A DNA stretch of 41,499 bases from an uncultured Anaerolineales bacterium (lineage in GTDB: Bacteria > Chloroflexota > Anaerolineae > B4-G1 > DUEL01): positions 1-41,499 of the forward strand of contig CAZOLN010000003.1 of assembly GCA_964580565.1 (NCBI GenBank), written 5' to 3'. The notes under the pieces are model-generated. The model was not told where the DNA came from, searched no databases, and saw only the letters and a list, made by a program, of their open reading frames with translations. Positions 9,543 to 36,667 of this stretch are shown piece after piece. Numbering within the stretch: the stretch's first letter is position 1; each line of letters opens with the position of its first letter. The position numbers and the translations under genes were made by a program.

Positions 9543-10172
9543 CTACCTCTCCCACCGCACGACCGTCCCCGCCCTGCGGGCCGGGTTGCCGTAGACCAGC
9601 GAGTTGGGCGGGACATCCCGCCGCACCACCGACCCTGCGCCGATGATGGAATTGTCGCCGATGGTCACGCCCTTCATAATGATCGAGTAGGGGCCGATCC
9701 AGACGTCGTCCCCGATGGTGATCGGGGCCTCGACCTCCGCCTCCCCGGTCCTCTCCAGCCACATCTTGTGACCGATGGAATCGAAGATGCTGCAGTTCCA
9801 ACTGATCATGCACCGAGCGCCGATCTTGACCTCGGTGGCGCACATGATCACGTTGTTGGCCCCGATGATGGTCCGCGGCCCGATGGTCAGATGCCCTCCG
9901 CAGACGATCTTGCTCCCCATCGCCAGCCGGGCCCCCCGGCCGATCTCGATGCGCCCGCCCTTCCACTTCAGGATCTGGACCTTGCGCTCGATGATGAACG
10001 GCTCCCGGGAGTCGAATTTGTAGAAGCGCAGCATCCACCGCAGGACCCCCAGCGCCGCGATCACCTTGTCGCGGGGGGGCATATTGAGCCAGAACTTGCG
10101 CCAGAAGTGCGTGTACGGCAGCACGTCCGGCTCTGCGGGCTGTTCTGCTTCCAGAGTCATCGTTTGATCCAT
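9543..10172 (-). CDS. Hexapeptide-repeat (left-handed beta-helix) acetyltransferase
   Basis: IGRGARLAMGSKIVCGGHLTIGPRTIIGANNVIMC..ITIGDDVWIGPYSIIMKGVTIGDNSIIGAGSVV hexapeptide periodicity. GGGAGG SD lies before ATG 10172. Confidence 0.85.
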   Translation of the reverse strand: MDQTMTLEAEQPAEPDVLPYTHFWRKFWLNMPPRDKVIAALGVLRWMLRFYKFDSREPFIIERKVQILKWKGGRIEIGRGARLAMGSKIVCGGHLTIGPRTIIGANNVIMCATEVKIGARCMISWNCSIFDSIGHKMWLERTGEAEVEAPITIGDDVWIGPYSIIMKGVTIGDNSIIGAGSVVRRDVPPNSLVYGNPARRAGTVVRWER

Positions 10173-10190
10173 AAGAGAGTACCTCCCTAT

Positions 10191-10246
10191 GCGTCACACG
10201 TCATACGTCAGGCGTCATGCGTCATACGTCACGCGTCAGGCGTCAG
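10191..10246 (-). repeat. Heptamer tandem array x8, TGACGYR on the gene strand
   Basis: Plus strand reads gcgtcac acgtcat acgtcag gcgtcat gcgtcat acgtcac gcgtcag gcgtcag. Confidence 0.9.
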
Positions 10247-11426
10247 ATGCTACTGCGCCCAGGTGACGGAGCAGATCCTGCACCGCCCCCTCCCAGTCCC
10301 ACGCCTCGACGACCCACCGACGCCCCGCCTGGCCCATCATCCGGGCGCGTTCTGGACACTCCAGCAGATCGCCGATCGCCTCGGCCAGGGCGCGGGGGTC
10401 GCGAGGGACCCGCAGGCCGGTCCGGCCGTGCAGGACCGTCTCCCGCACGCCCCCCTCGTCCACCCCCACCACCGGCGTCGCGCAGGCCATCGCCTCCAGC
10501 GGCACCAGCCCCAGCGGCTCCCGGTGAGGGGTGTAGGCGACCAGGGCAGCGCGGTTGTAGGCCGCCACCAGTTCCCCGTCCTCCACGCCGACCCGAATCC
10601 CCAGGTCCACTCCCCGATCCGCCGCCAGCCCCTCCAGGTACGCCCGTTCCTGCGGCTCGGCGTAGTTGCAGATGAGGCGCAACGGCGGGCGGACGGCCTC
10701 GGGCAGCCGGGCCAGCCCCTCGACCAGCAGGTCGAACCCCTTGTAGGGGGTCAGCGCGCCCACGGAGAGGACGAAGCCGTCCCGCGCCAGCCCCAGCGGG
10801 CGGAACCGATCTGCGTCGATCCCGTGGCGGCAGACGTGGGCCTCCACCCCGTAGATGCGGCGGACGTTGGCCTGGGTGTAGGCGGAGTTGACCAGCACAC
10901 GGGTCGCAGCACGGGTCGCCTCCCGGTCGATCCGCCGCAGAAGGGTGCGGTAGAACCGCAGCGCCGGATCCAGCCGATCCACCACGCCCCGCAGCGGGGA
11001 ACCGTGGAGATAGGGCCGGGGGACCGACGGCTCGTACAGGCGGCGCAGCGGTTCGTGGCAGTAATAGACCGAAGGGGTGCGCAGGTATCGCAACAGCGGC
11101 GGAGCCTGGCTGAACTGGCAAGGATGGACCAACGCCACGTCGAACCCCTCGGCGTCGATCGCGTGGGCCATCCGCCGGTTGACCCGCACCAGCCGGACCA
11201 GGTCGGCCGCCCGCGCAGCCCGGTTGAGCCGGCCAAAGGGGCGGCGCAGTTCCGGTCCAGGGCGAAACGGGAAGGCCCGAACCGGCACCCCGTCCACCTC
11301 CACCGGCGTCGCTGTGGTGAGGGTGAAGAGGGTGAGGTCGTGCCGGGCGGAGAGCCGCCGCACCTGCTCGGAGAGGGTGCGCAGCGCGCCGCCGGAGTGG
11401 AGGTTGTGATAGACCGCGATCCGCAC
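10236..11426 (-). CDS. Glycosyltransferase family 4
   Basis: RIAVYHNLHSGGA N-terminus. PHREPLGLVPLEAMACATPVVGVDEGGVRETV motif. GTG 11426 lies 6 nt after GGGAGG. The stop falls inside the heptamer array. Confidence 0.8.
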   Translation of the reverse strand: MRIAVYHNLHSGGALRTLSEQVRRLSARHDLTLFTLTTATPVEVDGVPVRAFPFRPGPELRRPFGRLNRAARAADLVRLVRVNRRMAHAIDAEGFDVALVHPCQFSQAPPLLRYLRTPSVYYCHEPLRRLYEPSVPRPYLHGSPLRGVVDRLDPALRFYRTLLRRIDREATRAATRVLVNSAYTQANVRRIYGVEAHVCRHGIDADRFRPLGLARDGFVLSVGALTPYKGFDLLVEGLARLPEAVRPPLRLICNYAEPQERAYLEGLAADRGVDLGIRVGVEDGELVAAYNRAALVAYTPHREPLGLVPLEAMACATPVVGVDEGGVRETVLHGRTGLRVPRDPRALAEAIGDLLECPERARMMGQAGRRWVVEAWDWEGAVQDLLRHLGAVASDA

Positions 11427-11428
11427 CG

Positions 11429-12526
11429 TCACCCTCCCGCCACGTTCTGCCAATGGGGCGCCAGGCTTCTGTCCGGATGGCGCGGAGTGAGCCTGCGCCG
11501 CAAGCCGACCAGCAGCCGCAGGGGGATCCCCTGCCAGCGGGTGGACGCCAGAGCCAGGCGATACTTCCGCCGGGGCGACAACGCCAGGGCCTGGGCCAGC
11601 CACCGTCGCCCCCGCTCCAGGTCCCGATGCCGGGCCACCGTCTCCACGCCCAGCCGGTACAACAACATCGCCCGATCCTCTGGCGGCAACCCCTGGAACC
11701 GGTCCGACGCCACCACCGCCGCCTGGGTCTCCGGGTCGCCATCGAAGAAGATGAGCAGCAACTGGCGGAGGAACTCGCGCCGGGTCCAGAGCGGCAGCGA
11801 GGGAAAGAAATCGGCCTCCAGGACCTTCCGCTTGAACCGCTGCACCGACCGCCAGCGGCGTGCCCAGTGAGGATGGGAGCGGGAGGAGGCGTTCTCCCCG
11901 TGGAGTCGGTACGCACAGACCGGCTCGCTGTGGGCAGCGAAGCGAGCCCCCGCCGCCGCCAACCGCAACCAGAGGTCGGCGTCCTCCGTGCCCCGCAGCC
12001 GTTCGTCGAACCAGGGATCGCCGAGCAGGCCCAGCGCCCGCCGTCGCACCATCGCCGAGTGGGTCGCCACGACCACGTTGTGCAGGACCATCACCGCCAG
12101 CAGCCCTTCCTCCGGAATCGAGGGGCGCTCCTCCGCGATCCGCTGCAGCCGCCGCCCCTCCGCGTCGCAGTAATACCCGTCGCCGTAGACCACATCCACC
12201 TCCGGGTGGCGGTCCAAGAAACCGGCCTGCACCTCCAGCGCCTCGGGGAGAAGCCAGTCGTCCGAGTCCAGGAAGACCAGGTACTCCCCCCGCGAGAGCC
12301 GGACCCCCCGGTTGCGGGCCACCGCCCGGCCCTGGTTCTCCTGGTAAAAGTAGCGGATCCGGTCTCCGTACCGCGCCCGCAACACGTCGCCGGTCCCGTC
12401 GGTGGATCCGTCGTCCACCACCACGATCTCGAAGGAGGGATACGCCTGCGCCAGCACGCTGTCGATGGCCTCACAGACCATCGAGGCCCGGTTGTAGGTG
12501 GGGATGATGACGCTAACCTTAGGCAC
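11429..12526 (-). CDS. Glycosyltransferase family 2 with about 130-aa C-terminal extension
   Basis: PKVSVIIPTYNRASMVCEAIDSVLAQ..VVVDDGSTDGT..LDSDDW motifs. GTG start at 12526 is preceded by GAAGGAG. Confidence 0.85.
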   Translation of the reverse strand: MPKVSVIIPTYNRASMVCEAIDSVLAQAYPSFEIVVVDDGSTDGTGDVLRARYGDRIRYFYQENQGRAVARNRGVRLSRGEYLVFLDSDDWLLPEALEVQAGFLDRHPEVDVVYGDGYYCDAEGRRLQRIAEERPSIPEEGLLAVMVLHNVVVATHSAMVRRRALGLLGDPWFDERLRGTEDADLWLRLAAAGARFAAHSEPVCAYRLHGENASSRSHPHWARRWRSVQRFKRKVLEADFFPSLPLWTRREFLRQLLLIFFDGDPETQAAVVASDRFQGLPPEDRAMLLYRLGVETVARHRDLERGRRWLAQALALSPRRKYRLALASTRWQGIPLRLLVGLRRRLTPRHPDRSLAPHWQNVAGG

Positions 12527-20176: not shown

Positions 20177-21417
20177 GCAGCCTCTGCTCCCTCGCTCCTT
20201 TGCTCCCTTGCTCCCTGCACCCTCCATCGATGCGGCAGGTACACCAACGCTCCCCCCTGATCGAACCGGGAGCCCACCACGAAGTGGACCGCTCCGTCGA
20301 TCTGGTCATAGGTGAGCGGAGAAAAATGGTCCCGCTTGATGCCGACGTTGACGTTGTACTCCCCGTTGAGGAGGTTCAGGCTCTCGTAGATGACCTCGGC
20401 GACCCCCTCATCCCCCGGCTCGAAGTGGCCGTGGATGTCGAACCGGGCCGTCGTGGTACCGTGGAGGATGCGGTATCCCTGACGGATGCGGGAGTAGAAG
20501 ACGGGGTCGTCCACCGGCGCGTTGGCGCGGAAGTGGATGCGCAGCCTCATCGGCTCCGCCGTCAGGAAGGAGTTGCGCGGCTCCCCCTCCCCGTCGAGCA
20601 GTTCCACCCGCGTGATCTCCATCTCCCGACCGCCCCCTCCTCGCCTATCCACCTCCCGCCGCAGCGCCTCGCCAGCGAAGCCGGTGTGGTAGAGATCCAA
20701 CGCCTCCTGGGTCTCCCCCAGGAACATCACCTTGCCCTTGTAGAGGAACAGGGTCCGATCGCACAACTTCTGGATCATCTCCTTGTTGTGAGAGACCACC
20801 ACCATCGTCTTGCCGGCATCCCGGAACTCCTGGATCCGCCGGACGCACTTATCGCGGAACATGTAATCCCCAACGGCCAGCACCTCGTCGATGAGCAGCA
20901 CGTCCGGATCCACGTGGACCGCCACGGCGAAGCCCAGTCGGACGAACATCCCGGAGGAGTACCGCTTGACCGGCATGTCGATGAACTCCTCCAGTTCGGA
21001 GAAGGCGACGATGCTGTCGAACTTCTCGTCGATCTCCCGCCGCTTCAGCCCCAGGATGGCGCCGTTGAGGTAGATGTTCTCCCGCCCGCTCAGGTCGGGA
21101 TGGAAGCCCGCGCCCAACTCGATGAGGGCGGAGACCCTGCCGCGCACCGTGATCCGCCCGCTGGTGGGGCGGGTGACCCGGGAGAGGAGTTTCAGGACGG
21201 TCGTCTTCCCCGCCCCGTTGGGGCCGATGATGCCCAGCACCTCCCCCTTCTTGACCTCAAAACTCACCCCGTCCAGCGCCCAGAGCAGGTCCCCCCGATC
21301 CTTCCCATCCCGCCCGACCACCTTGCCCAGCAGGTTCGGCAGCGCGTCCCGCAGGCTCCCCCGTCCGAACCGACGGCGGTAGGCCTTTCGCACGTTCTCA
21401 AACTCGATCGCGGCCAT
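20173..21417 (-). CDS. wzt: Polysaccharide-export ABC transporter ATP-binding protein with C-terminal Wzt_C-type carbohydrate-binding domain
   Basis: Walker A GPNGAGKTT, signature YSSGMFVRL, Walker B LLIDEVLAVGD. About 150-aa beta-rich C-terminal domain (ITRVELLDGEGEPRNSF...LNGEYNVNVGI). Start trimmed to ATG 21417 (MAAIEFENV). Confidence 0.9.
   Translation of the reverse strand: MAAIEFENVRKAYRRRFGRGSLRDALPNLLGKVVGRDGKDRGDLLWALDGVSFEVKKGEVLGIIGPNGAGKTTVLKLLSRVTRPTSGRITVRGRVSALIELGAGFHPDLSGRENIYLNGAILGLKRREIDEKFDSIVAFSELEEFIDMPVKRYSSGMFVRLGFAVAVHVDPDVLLIDEVLAVGDYMFRDKCVRRIQEFRDAGKTMVVVSHNKEMIQKLCDRTLFLYKGKVMFLGETQEALDLYHTGFAGEALRREVDRRGGGGREMEITRVELLDGEGEPRNSFLTAEPMRLRIHFRANAPVDDPVFYSRIRQGYRILHGTTTARFDIHGHFEPGDEGVAEVIYESLNLLNGEYNVNVGIKRDHFSPLTYDQIDGAVHFVVGSRFDQGGALVYLPHRWRVQGAREQRSEGAEAA
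20186..20225 (-). repeat. Octamer tandem array x5, RAGGGAGC on the gene strand
   Basis: Plus strand reads gctccctc gctccttt gctccctt gctccctg caccctcc. Lies directly upstream of ATG 20176. Confidence 0.8.
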
Positions 21418-26829: not shown

Positions 26830-26888
26830 ATAGAAAACTACAGAGAGGCACAGAGACCCCTCTGTTTTGGAGACTCTGTGCTCTCTGT
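26830..26888 (-). terminator. Long hairpin (palindromic-element family) plus T-run after era
   Basis: About 15 bp stem ACAGAGAG(G)CACAGAG / CTCTGTGCTCTCTGT with one bulge, followed on the minus strand by AGTTTTCTAT. Confidence 0.5.
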
Positions 26889-26907
26889 GTCTTTGTGGCG
26901 TGAACCC

Positions 26908-27855
26908 TTAATCCGGCCTGTAGCCCATCCAGCGAACCCGCGCCAGATCCCTCCGCCAGTTCTTGCTCACCTTCACCCACAGGTCCAGATAGACCCGTCC
27001 GCCGACCATCCGTTCGATCTCCTGACGGGCCGCCGTGCCGATCCGTCGGAGCATCCGCCCCCCCTTGCCGATCAGGATCCCCTTCTGGGACTCCCGCTCC
27101 ACGTAGATGTTGGCGGCGATGTAGACCACCCCGTTCTCCCGCTCCTGAAACTCCTCCACCAGCACGGCGACGGAGTGGGGCACCTCGTCCCGGGTGAGGC
27201 GAAGGATCTGCTCGCGGATCAACTCGGCGGCGATCTCCCGCTCCGTCTGATCGGTGATCTGGTCGCCCGGGTAGTACCGCGGCCCCTCCGGAAGGTGCTC
27301 GACGATCATCTCCAGCAGTTTGTCCAGGTTCACCGCCTCGGTGGCGACGGTCATCATCCACCCGGCGTGATCGGGCATCAACGCCCAGTACGCCTCGGTG
27401 TGGGATTTGACCCGATCCGGCGGCAGGAGGTCCATCTTGTTGAGCACCAAAATGACCGGGTTCTGGGTCCGCTCCCGGATCATCCTCGCGATCATCTGGT
27501 CCTCTTCCCGCGGCAGCACCGACACGTCGACCACGAAGAGGATCACGTCCGACCCGGGGATGGCGCGGGCCGCGGTGGCGACCATCACCTCCCCCAACTT
27601 GTGGAAGGGCTTGTGCAGCCCCGGCGTGTCGATGAAGATGATCTGGTAGTTCTCCCGCGTCAGGATCCCCCGGATGCGGGTGCGGGTGGTCTGGGGTTTG
27701 GGGGAGACGATGGCTACCTTGTGCCCCAGGAACTGGTTCATCAGGGTGGACTTCCCCACGTTGGGCCGGCCGATGACGGCGACGAAGCCGGATTTGTGGC
27801 CGGGGGGGACGTCCTCCAGGTCGTAGAACTCGGGTTCGCTTGTGGTTTCGTCCAT
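26908..27855 (-). CDS. era: GTPase Era
   Basis: GFVAVIGRPNVGKSTLMN (G1), DTPG (G3), NKMD (G4), C-terminal KH domain ERESQKGILIGKGGRMLRRIG. Confidence 0.95.
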   Translation of the reverse strand: MDETTSEPEFYDLEDVPPGHKSGFVAVIGRPNVGKSTLMNQFLGHKVAIVSPKPQTTRTRIRGILTRENYQIIFIDTPGLHKPFHKLGEVMVATAARAIPGSDVILFVVDVSVLPREEDQMIARMIRERTQNPVILVLNKMDLLPPDRVKSHTEAYWALMPDHAGWMMTVATEAVNLDKLLEMIVEHLPEGPRYYPGDQITDQTEREIAAELIREQILRLTRDEVPHSVAVLVEEFQERENGVVYIAANIYVERESQKGILIGKGGRMLRRIGTAARQEIERMVGGRVYLDLWVKVSKNWRRDLARVRWMGYRPD

Positions 27856-27870
27856 GGGCTCACCTGTTTT

Positions 27871-27947
27871 GTGTCATGCGTCAAACGTCATGCGTCATAC
27901 GTCACACGTCAAGCGTCAGACGTCAAACGTCAGGCGTCAGGCGTCAA
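27871..27947 (-). repeat. Heptamer tandem array x11, same TGACGYR family
   Basis: Plus strand reads gtgtcat gcgtcaa acgtcat gcgtcat acgtcac acgtcaa gcgtcag acgtcaa acgtcag gcgtcag gcgtcaa. Confidence 0.9.
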
Positions 27948-29036
27948 AGCGAGGCGGGTGACGAGCGGCAGGTACAGCGCAGCACCCCCGGCGAGGGGGA
28001 TCCGCTCCACAAGGGTGTACGGTCCGCCCGCCCCGTCGTCCCGATAGGTCTCCAGCACAACGAAGTCGTCCTCAACCCGGATAACGAGAAAGGTGCTGGG
28101 GGCTCCTCGATCCCCCTTTCCACGGGCGTGCCCGGCGTCCAGTTGCCAGACCCCGTCGATGCGCACCGCGCTGTAGTTGTGCGTGTGCCCGCAGATGTAG
28201 GCCACCACGCCGTGGGCCGCCAGGAGGTCCCAAAACCGATCTCGGTTCGCCGGATGAGCGTCGAGGCTGTCGCCGACGTGTCGCTCCCGCCCCGTCTCCG
28301 CGTCCGGCTGCGGGAAGGCCGGCTCGTGGCCGAAGACGAAGATGTAGGGCCGGTCGGTCGCCTGCAGGTCCGCCGCCAACCACTCGTAGAGGTGGTCGGG
28401 AAGGTCCCCATCGGTCGCCATCGGCCCGCCGACGTCGCAGTAGACGTTGAGCATCACCAGGTGGGCAGCGCCGTAGTCGAACGAGTAGGTCGTCGTCGGG
28501 CAGCCGGAGGGGCCGGGGTTCACCGGGCCGTAGTCGTACGCCTGGAGCCAGGCCACGTCGTCGGGGGTCTCCACCTCGTGGTTGCCGACGCCGGGATACC
28601 ACGGGAAGTCGGCCCCAAGGGTCTGGGAGAGGGTCCACTGCACCCCCAGCGGCGGATCGACGTCGCCGGGGCTGACCATGAAGGCCACGTCGCCCAGGGC
28701 GGCGATGGCCTCGCACGCCCCGCGGAAGTAGTGGACGGAGTCGTAGAGGCCCGGCCCTGCGTACTGCCGCATATCGGCAGCGACGGCGAAGGCGAAGGAG
28801 GAAGAGGGGGAGAGAGGGGAGAGAGGAGACAAGGGGACAGGGGGAGAAGGAGGAACCGTGGGAGAGGATACGGCAGGAGGACGAGCTGTAGGGGCGAGGG
28901 TGGGAGAGGCGGTGGGAGAGGTGATAGGGGGAGCAGCAGGAACGGCAGCGCAGGCAACCCCGAGCAAGAGGAGCGACAGCAAGATCGACGACGGGGTCAG
29001 GCCGAGCACCCTCCCCAACCGGTGGAGTCCCTTCAC
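27930..29036 (-). CDS. Secreted or anchored calcineurin-like metallophosphoesterase
   Basis: Signal/anchor ILLSLLLLGVACAAV and a Pro/Ser-rich linker, then SPGDVD, GVGNHE, VFGHEP, ICGHTHN motifs. GTG 29036 follows GGAGGAGG. The stop lies inside the heptamer array. Confidence 0.8.
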   Translation of the reverse strand: MKGLHRLGRVLGLTPSSILLSLLLLGVACAAVPAAPPITSPTASPTLAPTARPPAVSSPTVPPSPPVPLSPLSPLSPSSSFAFAVAADMRQYAGPGLYDSVHYFRGACEAIAALGDVAFMVSPGDVDPPLGVQWTLSQTLGADFPWYPGVGNHEVETPDDVAWLQAYDYGPVNPGPSGCPTTTYSFDYGAAHLVMLNVYCDVGGPMATDGDLPDHLYEWLAADLQATDRPYIFVFGHEPAFPQPDAETGRERHVGDSLDAHPANRDRFWDLLAAHGVVAYICGHTHNYSAVRIDGVWQLDAGHARGKGDRGAPSTFLVIRVEDDFVVLETYRDDGAGGPYTLVERIPLAGGAALYLPLVTRLALTPDA

Positions 29037-29049
29037 CGCCTCCTCCGGA

Positions 29050-29727
29050 CTACTCGCTTTTCTGAGGCAGGTGGGGCAACAGCCAGGCCAGGAATGCATC
29101 GGTGGAGCGGGTCTGGAGCAGGACGCGCCCCGGCCCGGTGAGGTCCACCACCAGCCCTTCCCCGCTGAAGAAGGTGGACTTCAGGCCGCCGATGCGGCGC
29201 ACCTTGAAGCCGATCCCCTCGGTGAAGGCGACCAGGTGGCCCGTGTCCACCGTGTAGGTCTCCCCCGCTTCCAGATCCACCGGGTGGATAGCGCCGAAGG
29301 ACGAGAGGAGCAACTTCCCCGTGCCGGAGGCGCGCAGCATGATCAGCCCCTCGGAGGCAAAAAAGGTCTTCGCACCGCCCCACTTGGTATCCAGCGTAAC
29401 CCCCATCTCAGAGGCGACGTAGGAGCCGGACTGCACCAGAAGGGTCTCGTCCTTGAGATCCACCACGAAGAGGTCGCCAGGAAGAGCGGGGGCAACGGTC
29501 AGTTCTCCTCCGGTGGACGGGGCGCGGTAGGTGTTCTGGAAGAAGCTCTCCCCCGCCAGGAGGGAACGGGCCAGGGACTTCAGGATGCCGCCCGCCGCCT
29601 TGGTCTGCACGGCGATCCCTTTGGACATGCTGACCATCGCGCCGCCTTCCACCCGCACTTCCTCGTTGGGGCCCAGGCGGAGGACCCCAAGGGAGTAGGA
29701 TGGGCGATACAAGATTTCTACCTCCAT
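29050..29727 (-). CDS. AIM24 / TIGR00266 (DUF124) family protein
   Basis: Full-length family-like sequence ...GGAMVSMSKGIAVQTK...GESFFQNTY...VDTGHLVAFTEGIGFKV...SGEGLVVDLTGPGRVLLQTR. Confidence 0.8.
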   Translation of the reverse strand: MEVEILYRPSYSLGVLRLGPNEEVRVEGGAMVSMSKGIAVQTKAAGGILKSLARSLLAGESFFQNTYRAPSTGGELTVAPALPGDLFVVDLKDETLLVQSGSYVASEMGVTLDTKWGGAKTFFASEGLIMLRASGTGKLLLSSFGAIHPVDLEAGETYTVDTGHLVAFTEGIGFKVRRIGGLKSTFFSGEGLVVDLTGPGRVLLQTRSTDAFLAWLLPHLPQKSE

Positions 29728-29763
29728 CGCGTTTCTCCTTTCCTTGTTTGGTTTGTTTACTTC

Positions 29764-30363
29764 TTACCCCTGCCCTCTAACCACGTAAATCCCCGGCAGG
29801 CTCGCCAGGGTGACCGCCCCCTTCAGCAGGACGTTGGCCCAGAAGATGGACCACACGGTAGCGGCGGGGAGGACGCCCCCAAACGCCCCCCAGCAAAAGA
29901 TGAGGCTGTCCAGCGGGACGCTGACCGCGTTGCTGGTGAGGACCCGCATCCACTGGTAGCGGCGGGTGATGCGGGTGACCCAGAGGTGGTAGATCTCGGT
30001 GTCGATGAACTCGGCGACCACCTCGGCGACGATGGAGGCGATAACGATCCGCCAAACCGGGGTGAGGACGGCGGCGAACTCCCGCTGGAGCGACCAGGTG
30101 GGGTCCGGCGGGAGCCAGGCGGCGAAGGCGAAAAGACCCGCCATCACCAGGTTGATGACCCCCGCTGCGACGATCACCGTCCGTGCCGCCGATCGCCCTA
30201 GCGACTTGTGCACCAGGTCCCGCAGGGTGAAGGTGAACGGGTAGATGAACGTGCCCGCGTCGATGCTGAAGCCCGCCACCCAGGCGATCTTCAGGCTCAA
30301 GATGTCGGAGAGCATCTGGGCAGCGATGTAGGCAGAGATGACCAGGACGCCAACGGTGCTCAC
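29764..30363 (-). CDS. yhhQ: Queuosine-precursor transporter (YhhQ/DUF165 family)
   Basis: AQMLSDILSLKI...GTFIYPFTFTLRDLVHK...DTEIYHLW...SNAVSVPLDSLIF. GTG start at 30363 follows GGGGAG. Confidence 0.85.
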   Translation of the reverse strand: MSTVGVLVISAYIAAQMLSDILSLKIAWVAGFSIDAGTFIYPFTFTLRDLVHKSLGRSAARTVIVAAGVINLVMAGLFAFAAWLPPDPTWSLQREFAAVLTPVWRIVIASIVAEVVAEFIDTEIYHLWVTRITRRYQWMRVLTSNAVSVPLDSLIFCWGAFGGVLPAATVWSIFWANVLLKGAVTLASLPGIYVVRGQG

Positions 30364-30507: not shown

Positions 30508-30549
30508 GGCAGGTTACAGGTTACAGGCTACAAGTTACAGGTCTCAGGT
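30508..30549 (-). repeat. Heptamer tandem array x5-6, CCTGTAA family on the gene strand
   Basis: Minus strand reads ACCTGAG ACCTGTA ACTTGTA GCCTGTA ACCTGTA ACCTGCC. Confidence 0.85.
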
Positions 30550-35985: not shown

Positions 35986-36609
35986 GTGTTGATCACGTTC
36001 GAGGGCCCTGAGGGCAGCGGAAAGACGACCCAGGCCCGGCTCCTGGCGGAGCACCTGCGCGGGCTGGGGTACGAGGTGATCCTTACCCGAGAACCCGGGG
36101 GAACGCCGGTCGGGGACCAGATCCGGCAGATCCTTCACGACCCGGCCAACGCTGGGATGTATGCCTGGACCGAGGTCTTCCTCTACACCGCCTCCCGTGC
36201 CCAACTGGTAGCCGAGGTGATCCGGCCGGCGCTGGCGACCGGGAAACTGGTCGTCTGCGACCGGTTCTACGACAGCACCCTGGCCTATCAGGGGTACGGC
36301 CGCGGGCTGGACCTGGAGGTCCTCTGGCAGATCACCCGCATCGCCACCGGCGGGCTCGTCCCCGACCTGACCCTCTACCTGGACATCCAGCCCGACGAGG
36401 GGCTGACGCGACGGCTGCTGGGCGGCGGGGAGTGGAACCGGCTGGACCAGGAAACCCTGGCCTTCCATCGCCGAGTGCGGGCCGGTTACTTGGAACTGGC
36501 CGGGATGGAGCCGGAGCGGTGGGTCGTGATCGACGGCGCCCGGCCTATTCCCGAAGTACGGCGAGAGATACAGGCTGTCGTGGAGTCGAGGTTGGATGGA
36601 GGCGACTAG
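35986..36609 (+). CDS. tmk: Thymidylate kinase
   Basis: LITFEGPEGSGKTTQARLL...REPGGTPVG...CDRFYDSTLAYQGYGRG. In-frame GTG 35986 lies just after the upstream stop, and the track start 35839 overlaps the ATPase gene. Confidence 0.9.
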   Translation: MLITFEGPEGSGKTTQARLLAEHLRGLGYEVILTREPGGTPVGDQIRQILHDPANAGMYAWTEVFLYTASRAQLVAEVIRPALATGKLVVCDRFYDSTLAYQGYGRGLDLEVLWQITRIATGGLVPDLTLYLDIQPDEGLTRRLLGGGEWNRLDQETLAFHRRVRAGYLELAGMEPERWVVIDGARPIPEVRREIQAVVESRLDGGD

Positions 36610-36613
36610 TCCT

Positions 36614-36655
36614 CAGTTGCCGGTTGCTCGTTGCCCGTTGCTGGTTGCCGGTTGG
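36614..36655. repeat. Heptamer tandem array x6, NNGTTGC (plus strand), between convergent genes
   Basis: cagttgc cggttgc tcgttgc ccgttgc tggttgc cggttgg. Confidence 0.85.
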
Positions 36656-36667
36656 CGGCCGAGGCGG

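Follow-up and report, generated by a model that had tools for sequence, protein, structure and literature searches.

Families of tandem heptanucleotides known as STRR are reportedly scattered through the intergenic DNA of one lineage, the cyanobacteria, and are said to have been described by Mazel and colleagues in 1990. Heptamer SSRs also accompany virulence genes, as with the (TTTTGAT)n tract in the ctxAB promoter of Vibrio cholerae, for which an effect on expression has been proven. Expression control is likewise proven for (ATCTTTC)n in the 5′-UTR of hmw1A and hmw2A in Haemophilus influenzae, where the repeat hairpin is cut by RNase III (PMC12721329). Among the long SSRs of prokaryotes, heptanucleotides form the most common class (Mrazek, 2007, as cited in PMC4679880). 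Chloroflexus aurantiacus contains 22 satellites derived from (GATAGRA)n, a unit with one degenerate position (Subirana and Messeguer, 2019, PMC6749651). TAACTGA direct repeats occur in marine Beggiatoaceae, cyanobacteria, and Bacteroidetes; their function is conjectural, with a role in translational regulation having been proposed (MacGregor, 2015, PMC4679880).

The stretch of DNA analyzed here (41,499 nt, hereafter the window) contains two arrays of one heptamer, A1 and A2, of which A2 occupies the junction between a calcineurin-like metallophosphoesterase gene and era (Table 1). A2 is best read as a hypervariable heptanucleotide satellite that fills the intercistronic spacer, a reading to which we give a probability of about two in three. 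From 27946 to 27871 on the minus strand, A2 runs TGACGCC TGACGCC TGACGTT TGACGTC TGACGCT TGACGTG TGACGTA TGACGCA TGACGTT TGACGCA TGACAC and is followed by AAAAC AGGTGA GCCC ATG. Rereading of this strand agrees with the preliminary description as to the ten perfect-core units and the TGACAC, the stop codon inside the array, and the era ATG. The unit-encoded protein tail reported there is also real, as units 1–3 encode the phosphoesterase end ..LALTPDA and then the stop (..LTPDA*). Tandem Repeats Finder (TRF) describes A2 as ten copies of period 7, though period 21 scores higher. A2 is probably transcribed within a polycistronic mRNA.

Table 1. Coordinates of A1, A2, their neighboring genes, and the other short-period arrays of the window
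Feature	Position	Strand	Basis
A2, ten units TGACG+YN, cores perfect (27879-27883 ... 27942-27946)	27877-27946	minus	
Decayed end unit TGACAC, era-proximal 3′ edge of A2	27871-27876	minus	
Metallophosphoesterase stop, TGA of A2 unit 3	27930-27932	minus	
era Shine-Dalgarno AGGTGA, 5 nt past the decayed unit of A2, kept in all conspecific contigs	27860-27865	minus	Read from sequence
era, GTPase + KH domain, downstream cistron (ATG 27855-27853)	26908-27855	minus	Pfam MMR_HSR1 + KH_2
Metallophosphoesterase ORF (calcineurin-like), upstream cistron	27930-29099	minus	Pfam Metallophos
A1, eight units TGACG+YN, same unit as A2	10190-10245	minus	
GT4 glycosyltransferase stop, TGA of A1 unit 2 (tail ..SDA*)	10236-10238	minus	
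Shine-Dalgarno GGGAGG of the hexapeptide-repeat transferase, 2 nt past the last A1 unit (transferase ATG 10172-10170)	10182-10187	minus	
GT4 glycosyltransferase	10236-11603	minus	Pfam
Hexapeptide-repeat transferase	9543-10172	minus	Pfam
GTTGC+YN array, six units, flanked by thymidylate kinase (TAG 36607-36609) and a Zn-ribbon gene (stop 36668), whose 3′ ends converge on it	36616-36658		
TAACCTG array, 4.7 units, 1 nt past the stop of ATP_bind_3 (30544-30546)	30510-30542	gene strand	
Octamer arrays of Shine-Dalgarno-like units (AGGGAGCA; GGAAGCNN)	20181-20224 and 291-367	gene strand	

A1 and A2 lie on the same strand with the same layout, the upstream stop codon falling inside the array and a Shine-Dalgarno sequence following 2–5 nt beyond its end. 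The simplest explanation of this common layout is that both intergenic spacers are very short and are filled by the array, so that a positional rule is unneeded. Position 7 of the unit takes all four bases in A1 and A2 (A7 C5 G3 T3), and the unit is therefore TGACGYN rather than the TGACGYR first given for it. A TGA is present in every frame, and the sense strand of either array thus cannot be coding. Counted by register, perfect CGTCA cores spaced 7 nt apart number ten in A2 (27879–27946) and eight in A1 (10192–10245), with no run of two or more cores at this spacing elsewhere in the window. The window contains 14 instances of three tandem cores, all within A1 or A2, against an expectation of 0.00 in 100 shuffles. 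The lone pentamer TGACG is not enriched in the window (95 observed versus 105 ± 10 expected).

An identical Era protein is encoded by seven contigs, each drawn from an independent assembly (ENA, JGI, or Logan); the seventh (L005) begins 16 nt ahead of the era ATG and does not span A2. A2 is present as five alleles, of 2+1, 3, 10+1 (three contigs and the window), 11+1, and 12+1 units, which place the phosphoesterase stop and the era start 18 to 88 nt apart. Units that have been added duplicate their neighbors: one allele gains 7 nt (TGACGTT) and another 14 nt (TGACGTG TGACGTA). The first three units, including the stop codon, are the same across alleles, so that all of the length variation falls in the untranslated part of the array. 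Over 20,696 bp, contig L001 is 99.72% identical to the window, and the single gap in the alignment is the 14-nt difference in A2. At A1, one of three other contigs has seven units in place of the eight of the window, along with one spacer substitution. Unit number, which the preliminary description had raised as a possible population variable, is therefore polymorphic at both loci (two alleles at A1), in contigs that are otherwise 98.9–99.9% identical. Since new units copy their neighbors and arrays differ by whole units, whole-unit slippage is the demonstrated mode of change; such growth and shrinkage is what replication slippage or unequal exchange would give. The three further short-period arrays of the window that could be compared, in one to three available contigs, are invariant.

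Short-read assemblers can collapse repeats, and the preliminary description had considered that the arrays might be artefacts of assembly. Such an origin, in assembly or in sequencing, is extremely improbable. A2 spans only 76 nt, less than one read or a 141-mer, and it appears with identical flanks in 10 independent assemblies (ENA, JGI, Logan, and NCBI). On the other side of era, the 3′ spacer (26830–26900) contains short direct and inverted repeats of the CACAGAG/CTCTGTG type (..cagagaggcacagagacccctctgttttggagaCTCTGTGCTCTCTGTG..) and is a candidate hairpin-forming 3′ element; it shows one SNP among the seven contigs and is otherwise invariant.

Genomes, one for each species, were searched for five tandem cores with the pattern (TGACGNN)4TGACG; the matches listed were nearly exclusively perfect single-spacer microsatellites and came from many phyla, with Streptomyces, Verrucomicrobiota, and Bacteroidota among the sources. 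These were rejected as members of the same family, being perfect repeats without mixed spacers. Mixed-spacer arrays among the matches listed are concentrated in a few Chloroflexota MAGs (Thermoflexales, Anaerolineae, Sphaerobacter), and none of the listed matches is homologous to the window loci. When metagenomes were scanned with a pattern that forced a switch from C to T at position 6, thereby excluding perfect arrays, mixed-spacer TGACGYN arrays were found in at least 120 contigs, mostly with a GC content of 0.60–0.70. Among the metagenome matches listed, one assembly often holds several such contigs, including the sample that contains one of the conspecific contigs. The claim that A1 and A2 represent a genuine repeat family rather than a local slippage accident is thus upheld by the two window loci, by the orthologous junction of contig L170, and by these metagenome contigs. 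One match to the TGACGYN pattern was found among viral contigs, and a viral origin of the arrays was rejected on this basis.

Across 131 arrays with 1543 units, the family weights are T.96 G.93 A.98 C.98 G.94 for the core, C.47/T.45 at position 6, and T.51 C.22 A.17 G.10 at position 7. The commonest spacers are TT, CT, CC, and CA, higher-order patterns of 14 or 21 nt are frequent, and mutated cores make up 16% of the units. TRF detects about 390 tandem arrays on 887 kb of family contigs, of which 256 have period 7, while periods 8 and 6 account for 43 and 30, respectively; this census is biased through the choice of contigs, while the secondary arrays on those contigs are unbiased. About 159 of the period-7 arrays are TGACGYN, and each other heptamer accounts for at most six. 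The nearest named homologs of the phosphoesterase belong to Thermoflexia MAGs (identities of 94% and 74%), followed by those of Anaerolineae (64–66%), and one related contig is labeled as a hydrothermal vent metagenome. The family is abundant in Thermoflexia/Anaerolineae-like Chloroflexota, the genomes of which are unusually rich in 7-nt tandem repeats. Literature searches returned no description of the TGACGYN family, nor of tandem repeats in Thermoflexus. TGACGYN constitutes a previously undescribed heptamer satellite family of an uncultured Thermoflexia-like lineage from hydrothermal-type metagenomes.

Two observations concern the composition of individual family loci. In Anaerolineae bacterium S143_38, two arrays on separate contigs (L029 5728–5827 and L079 171–263) share a homologous upstream flank of about 60 nt (..cacgaattacg..ccaagatgcgcctgcagcgccgact..agcgcc), and in this genome the TGACGYN array may move as part of a larger repeated element. 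In L111 (a Sphaerobacter sp. MAG), L142/L241, L152, and L191, TGACG arrays grade into or adjoin ACGCANN, TCACGYN, or TTCCACG heptamers, and it appears that one heptamer family can seed another or decay into it.

The family shows the features by which heptanucleotide satellites are recognized, namely a tandem excess over composition, polymorphism in unit number, presence at many loci, and a mostly non-coding location. As in other prokaryotic heptamer satellites, 7-nt non-coding units stand in tandem, one unit recurs at many loci, a position is degenerate, length changes by slippage, and no function is established. The (GATAGRA)n satellites share the phylum Chloroflexota with TGACGYN, whereas the unit differs and the host is of a Thermoflexia-like lineage rather than Chloroflexus. 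Two further differences from known heptamer satellites are the unusually diverse spacer dinucleotide beside a perfect core and the very high density found here, with about six short-period arrays in 41.5 kb. The STRR repeats of cyanobacteria are said to be similar in forming heptanucleotide families in the intergenic DNA of one lineage, and are set apart by their described unit and by phylum. A2 is thus an ordinary kind of bacterial DNA satellite, lineage-specific, for which the sequence evidence shows no dedicated function.

Gene contexts across the family were assigned from gene calls made with a crude GC3-based heuristic. On these calls, 37 arrays are sense and co-directional, 15 antisense and co-directional, 8 divergent, and 5 convergent; the divergent and convergent cases run counter to the proposal that such arrays are restricted to stop-to-start spacers of same-strand gene pairs. 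An additional 12–22 arrays (at most 22 of 155, on rough calls) coincide with an antisense ORF, which runs along the strand that lacks stops, and the location of family arrays is otherwise mostly non-coding. A same-strand start lies no more than 45 nt downstream of the array in 46 of 113 cases, including 13 TTG artefacts inside the array, and the mirror arrangement is found in 32 of 113. Many arrays halt just short of a Shine-Dalgarno sequence, and individual loci show that the array can abut it in either orientation. On the TGACG strand, 46 loci have a positive GC skew and 42 a negative one, and replication polarity was rejected for this reason. The orientation logic suggested by A1 and A2 is therefore not general: family arrays occur in both orientations, abut Shine-Dalgarno sequences either way, and show no GC-skew polarity. 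Orientation and junction type roughly follow availability, and the arrays would seem to take up any dispensable bases in very short spacers.

The TGA within each sense unit raises the question of whether the array was selected as a frame-independent translation stop, shielding era from read-through or frameshifted ribosomes. A TGA appears in each frame within 21 nt, in 20 of 39 family cases a TGA of the array itself (at +3, +10, or +17) terminates the ORF upstream of a sense array, and the window's other sense heptamer, TAACCTG, also carries a stop codon. However, three units would be enough for this purpose, yet arrays reach 10–22 units, and antisense arrays, which are stop-free and read through by ORFs, are common. 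The stop property would account for the tolerance of the arrays better than for their origin, and we consider selection for it very improbable. Origin by duplication of a gene's own TGA stop was also rejected as a general rule, with the stop located in unit 3 in 10 cases, unit 2 in 6, and unit 1 in 4, and with antisense arrays in existence.

Inverted partners are a further feature of the family, with CGTCA units followed by a short loop and TGACG units in 28 clusters, compared with 3 clusters in the reverse order. At the inverted-partner loci (L131–L250, for example L166, L199, and L244), the short arm usually has two or three units, and some loci form near-perfect long palindromes just upstream of the ribosome-binding site. 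These clusters could form hairpins, which would allow the arrays to be viewed as hairpin-type elements such as REPs or terminators. A1 and A2 themselves have no inverted partner in the window and no overlapping terminator-like site, and they lack the stem-loop that characterizes REP/BIME elements. For these two arrays, a hairpin-type element was judged jointly with the artefact explanation above and is as improbable.

Scans of the window with Rfam (gathering thresholds) and for tRNAs found nothing, and promoter and terminator scans found no sigma-70-like promoter or intrinsic terminator in or abutting A1 or A2. Two terminator-like sites on the plus strand (10125–10142) were set aside, as they lie inside the transferase gene and are unrelated to the arrays. 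Folds of the sense-strand RNA, with and without flanks, are no better than those of shuffled sequences (z = -0.2 to -1.6; -0.23 and -0.95 with flanks). The antisense strand of A2 does fold better (z = -4.6), owing solely to the self-complementarity of ACGT; A1 gives z = -2.0, without the effect seen in A2.

Orthologous junctions show how long such arrays last. In the syntenic contig L170 (83–88% nucleotide identity), the array is kept at the junction and its first two units are identical to those of A2, and its spacers are CC CC TA CT CT CT plus a decayed unit, the interior and the ribosome-binding region differing from A2. More varied arrangements are found at the junctions of other relatives, ordered here by the amino acid identity of the phosphoesterase: in L253 (89%), the ORF reads through a different repeat-like tail; in L259 (79%), the spacer is plain; in L254 (78%), a different heptamer, TTCGGYG x3, begins at the stop; in L251 (76%), a vestige of the form CGACGTT TGACGTT TCACATT is present; and in L257 (68%), the spacer is again plain. 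The junction between ATP_bind_3 and Vut_1 behaves similarly: the window carries TAACCTG there, L251 has CAGCAAC, and L170 is without an array. Judged from these aligned junctions, arrays are gained, replaced, and lost on a species time scale, and this turnover is a poor fit to a conserved regulatory element. As a separate observation, an AIM24-family gene (29050–29727) is absent from the otherwise syntenic L170 (window 28804–29780 versus L170 6014–6314), a gene-sized indel between genomes that are 83–88% identical.

It might be proposed that A2 is a contingency-type expression element, in which the number of units would set the distance from the stop to the era ribosome-binding site, or the RNA context, and slippage would produce heritable, reversible changes in the output of Era (and, at A1, of the acetyltransferase). 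In its favor, near-identical strains differ in unit number, and do so only where the array is untranslated; A1 and A2 end 2–5 nt from a Shine-Dalgarno sequence; and in H. influenzae a heptamer SSR within a 5′-UTR has a proven role in expression control (PMC12721329). Like the hmw and ctxAB repeats, A2 is a heptamer SSR upstream of a start codon with a strain-variable number of units. However, those repeats are located in the promoter or 5′-UTR of virulence genes, whereas A2 is intercistronic and precedes era, a housekeeping gene unlike the surface and virulence genes usual in phase variation. A2 also has no hairpin partner in the window and no significant sense fold, so there is no counterpart of the RNase III mechanism of hmw. 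Family arrays occur in either orientation, some of them at junctions where genes converge or diverge, and close relatives are without an array at the era junction. Considering both sides, a contingency-type element is unlikely.

The most distinctive property of the arrays is the contrast between core and spacer. In the 18 full units of the window, deviations occur at 0 of 90 core sites and at 19 of 36 sites at positions 6–7 (Fisher p = 5e-13). Seven of the ten A2 spacers are distinct, so that recent homogenization cannot account for the perfect core. Decayed units are observed at array ends. The invariant 5-nt core suggests either purifying selection on the core as a recognition motif or core-dependent slippage, with interrupted arrays decaying from their edges.

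If the core is a recognition motif, the array may serve as a binding platform for a protein that reads TGACG at 7-nt spacing, either an RNA-binding oligomer similar to TRAP or HutP or a duplex-binding regulator, which would imply a lineage-wide regulon. Repeated recognition sites characteristically combine a conserved core with free spacer positions, one heptamer family is dominant, and arrays stand directly upstream of ribosome-binding sites. TGACGYN resembles TRAP and HutP targets in having a short conserved core at fixed spacing with free spacer bases, but differs from them in that its strand relative to the gene is not fixed, and the occurrence of both orientations relative to the downstream gene argues against a reader at the RNA level.

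An analogous proposal exists for the TAACTGA repeats of Beggiatoaceae (PMC4679880), which are also stop-containing heptamers of hydrothermal-sediment organisms, abundant between genes. TAACTGA often stands in the forward orientation a few nucleotides before a start codon; A1 and A2 are forward and end 2–5 nt ahead of a clear Shine-Dalgarno sequence, and family arrays abut one in either orientation. The two differ in unit and phylum, and TAACTGA occurs in sets of 2–6 near-identical copies, whereas A1 and A2 contain 8–11 copies with variable spacers. Moreover, TAACTGA often replaces the Shine-Dalgarno sequence, while a clear one follows A1 and A2, and the TGACGYN family is found in both orientations. 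Against a binding platform at A2, no candidate protein is known, the locus varies from 2 to 12 units with the essential downstream gene still present, lone TGACG is not enriched, and relatives carry other heptamers or none at the era junction. A platform of this kind would be distinctly unlikely. A more elaborate version would treat TGACG at 7-nt spacing as a recognition code for a Thermoflexia/Anaerolineae protein on duplex DNA or RNA, with the two free positions kept diverse to damp slippage, the hundreds of intergenic arrays acting as a lineage-wide layer over translation initiation or local DNA structure, and the 28 versus 3 bias among inverted partners reflecting the geometry of the complex. 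This last idea is a long shot.

For the reading of A2 as a tolerated, hypervariable satellite, the following course may be envisaged. Whole-unit slippage or unequal exchange between units would expand and contract the array, which would persist where it is harmless; in a compact genome, this would be the few bases separating a stop codon from the ribosome-binding site that follows, and the array would thus come to fill that spacer. The sense orientation would be especially harmless to the upstream gene, as every frame is closed within three units, a consequence of the TGA in each unit and of 7 not being a multiple of 3. The phosphoesterase would gain only the tail LTPDA at any length of A2. 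The main physical effect of A2 would then be the altered distance from stop to start (18 to 88 nt), which may alter the translational coupling of era, though the array would not be required for coupling. An effect of A2 on the coupling of the phosphoesterase and era cistrons is plausible but unproven.

Several observations sit less comfortably with a tolerated satellite. Pure neutral slippage explains neither the perfect core beside free spacers nor the dominance of one heptamer family, the latter hinting that TGACG itself has some special property. Among the strictly defined co-directional cases, sense arrays outnumber antisense ones (37 versus 15), and the ending of arrays just short of the Shine-Dalgarno sequence could reflect function rather than tolerance. 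If no binding factor exists, TGACGYN would be a clear case of compact genomes tolerating satellites only in the few bases that part a stop codon from the following ribosome-binding site.

Natural populations show directly that these arrays form the principal indel hot spots among strains otherwise 99.7% identical, and the arrays offer ready-made VNTR markers for strain tracking. They also affect annotation, as they shift stop codons, append short unit-encoded tails, and can mislead gene callers. At its other end, the phosphoesterase has a predicted signal peptide ending in ..LLLGVAC, followed by a P/S/T-rich linker, and these sequence features make it a probable lipoprotein. In several assemblies, automatic annotation begins this gene at 28772 (280 aa), thereby dropping the signal-peptide N-terminus. 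A TRF repeat at 28803–28847 was rejected as a further intergenic array, as it corresponds to the coding P/S-rich linker.

Apart from A1 and A2, the window holds four more short-period arrays, all outside genes or at gene ends (Table 1). The GTTGC+YN array has the same design of a 5-nt core followed by Y and N as TGACGYN; its reverse complement (NRGCAAC/CAGCAAC) recurs in L251 (9050–9093), and a similar-looking stretch is present upstream of the TGACG array of L198. The TAACCTG array contains TAA and closes all frames; it is missing in L170, where the 170-nt spacer has shrunk to 19 nt. Of the octamer arrays, the one at 20181–20224 lies within the 3′ end of a Wzt-type ABC ATPase ORF and extends up to the ATG of the next gene (20176), the start of which overlaps the Wzt stop (ATGA). 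The array at 291–367 lies between the stop of one gene and the following ATG, and the GGAAGCNN unit is also found directly upstream of the TGACG array in L185.
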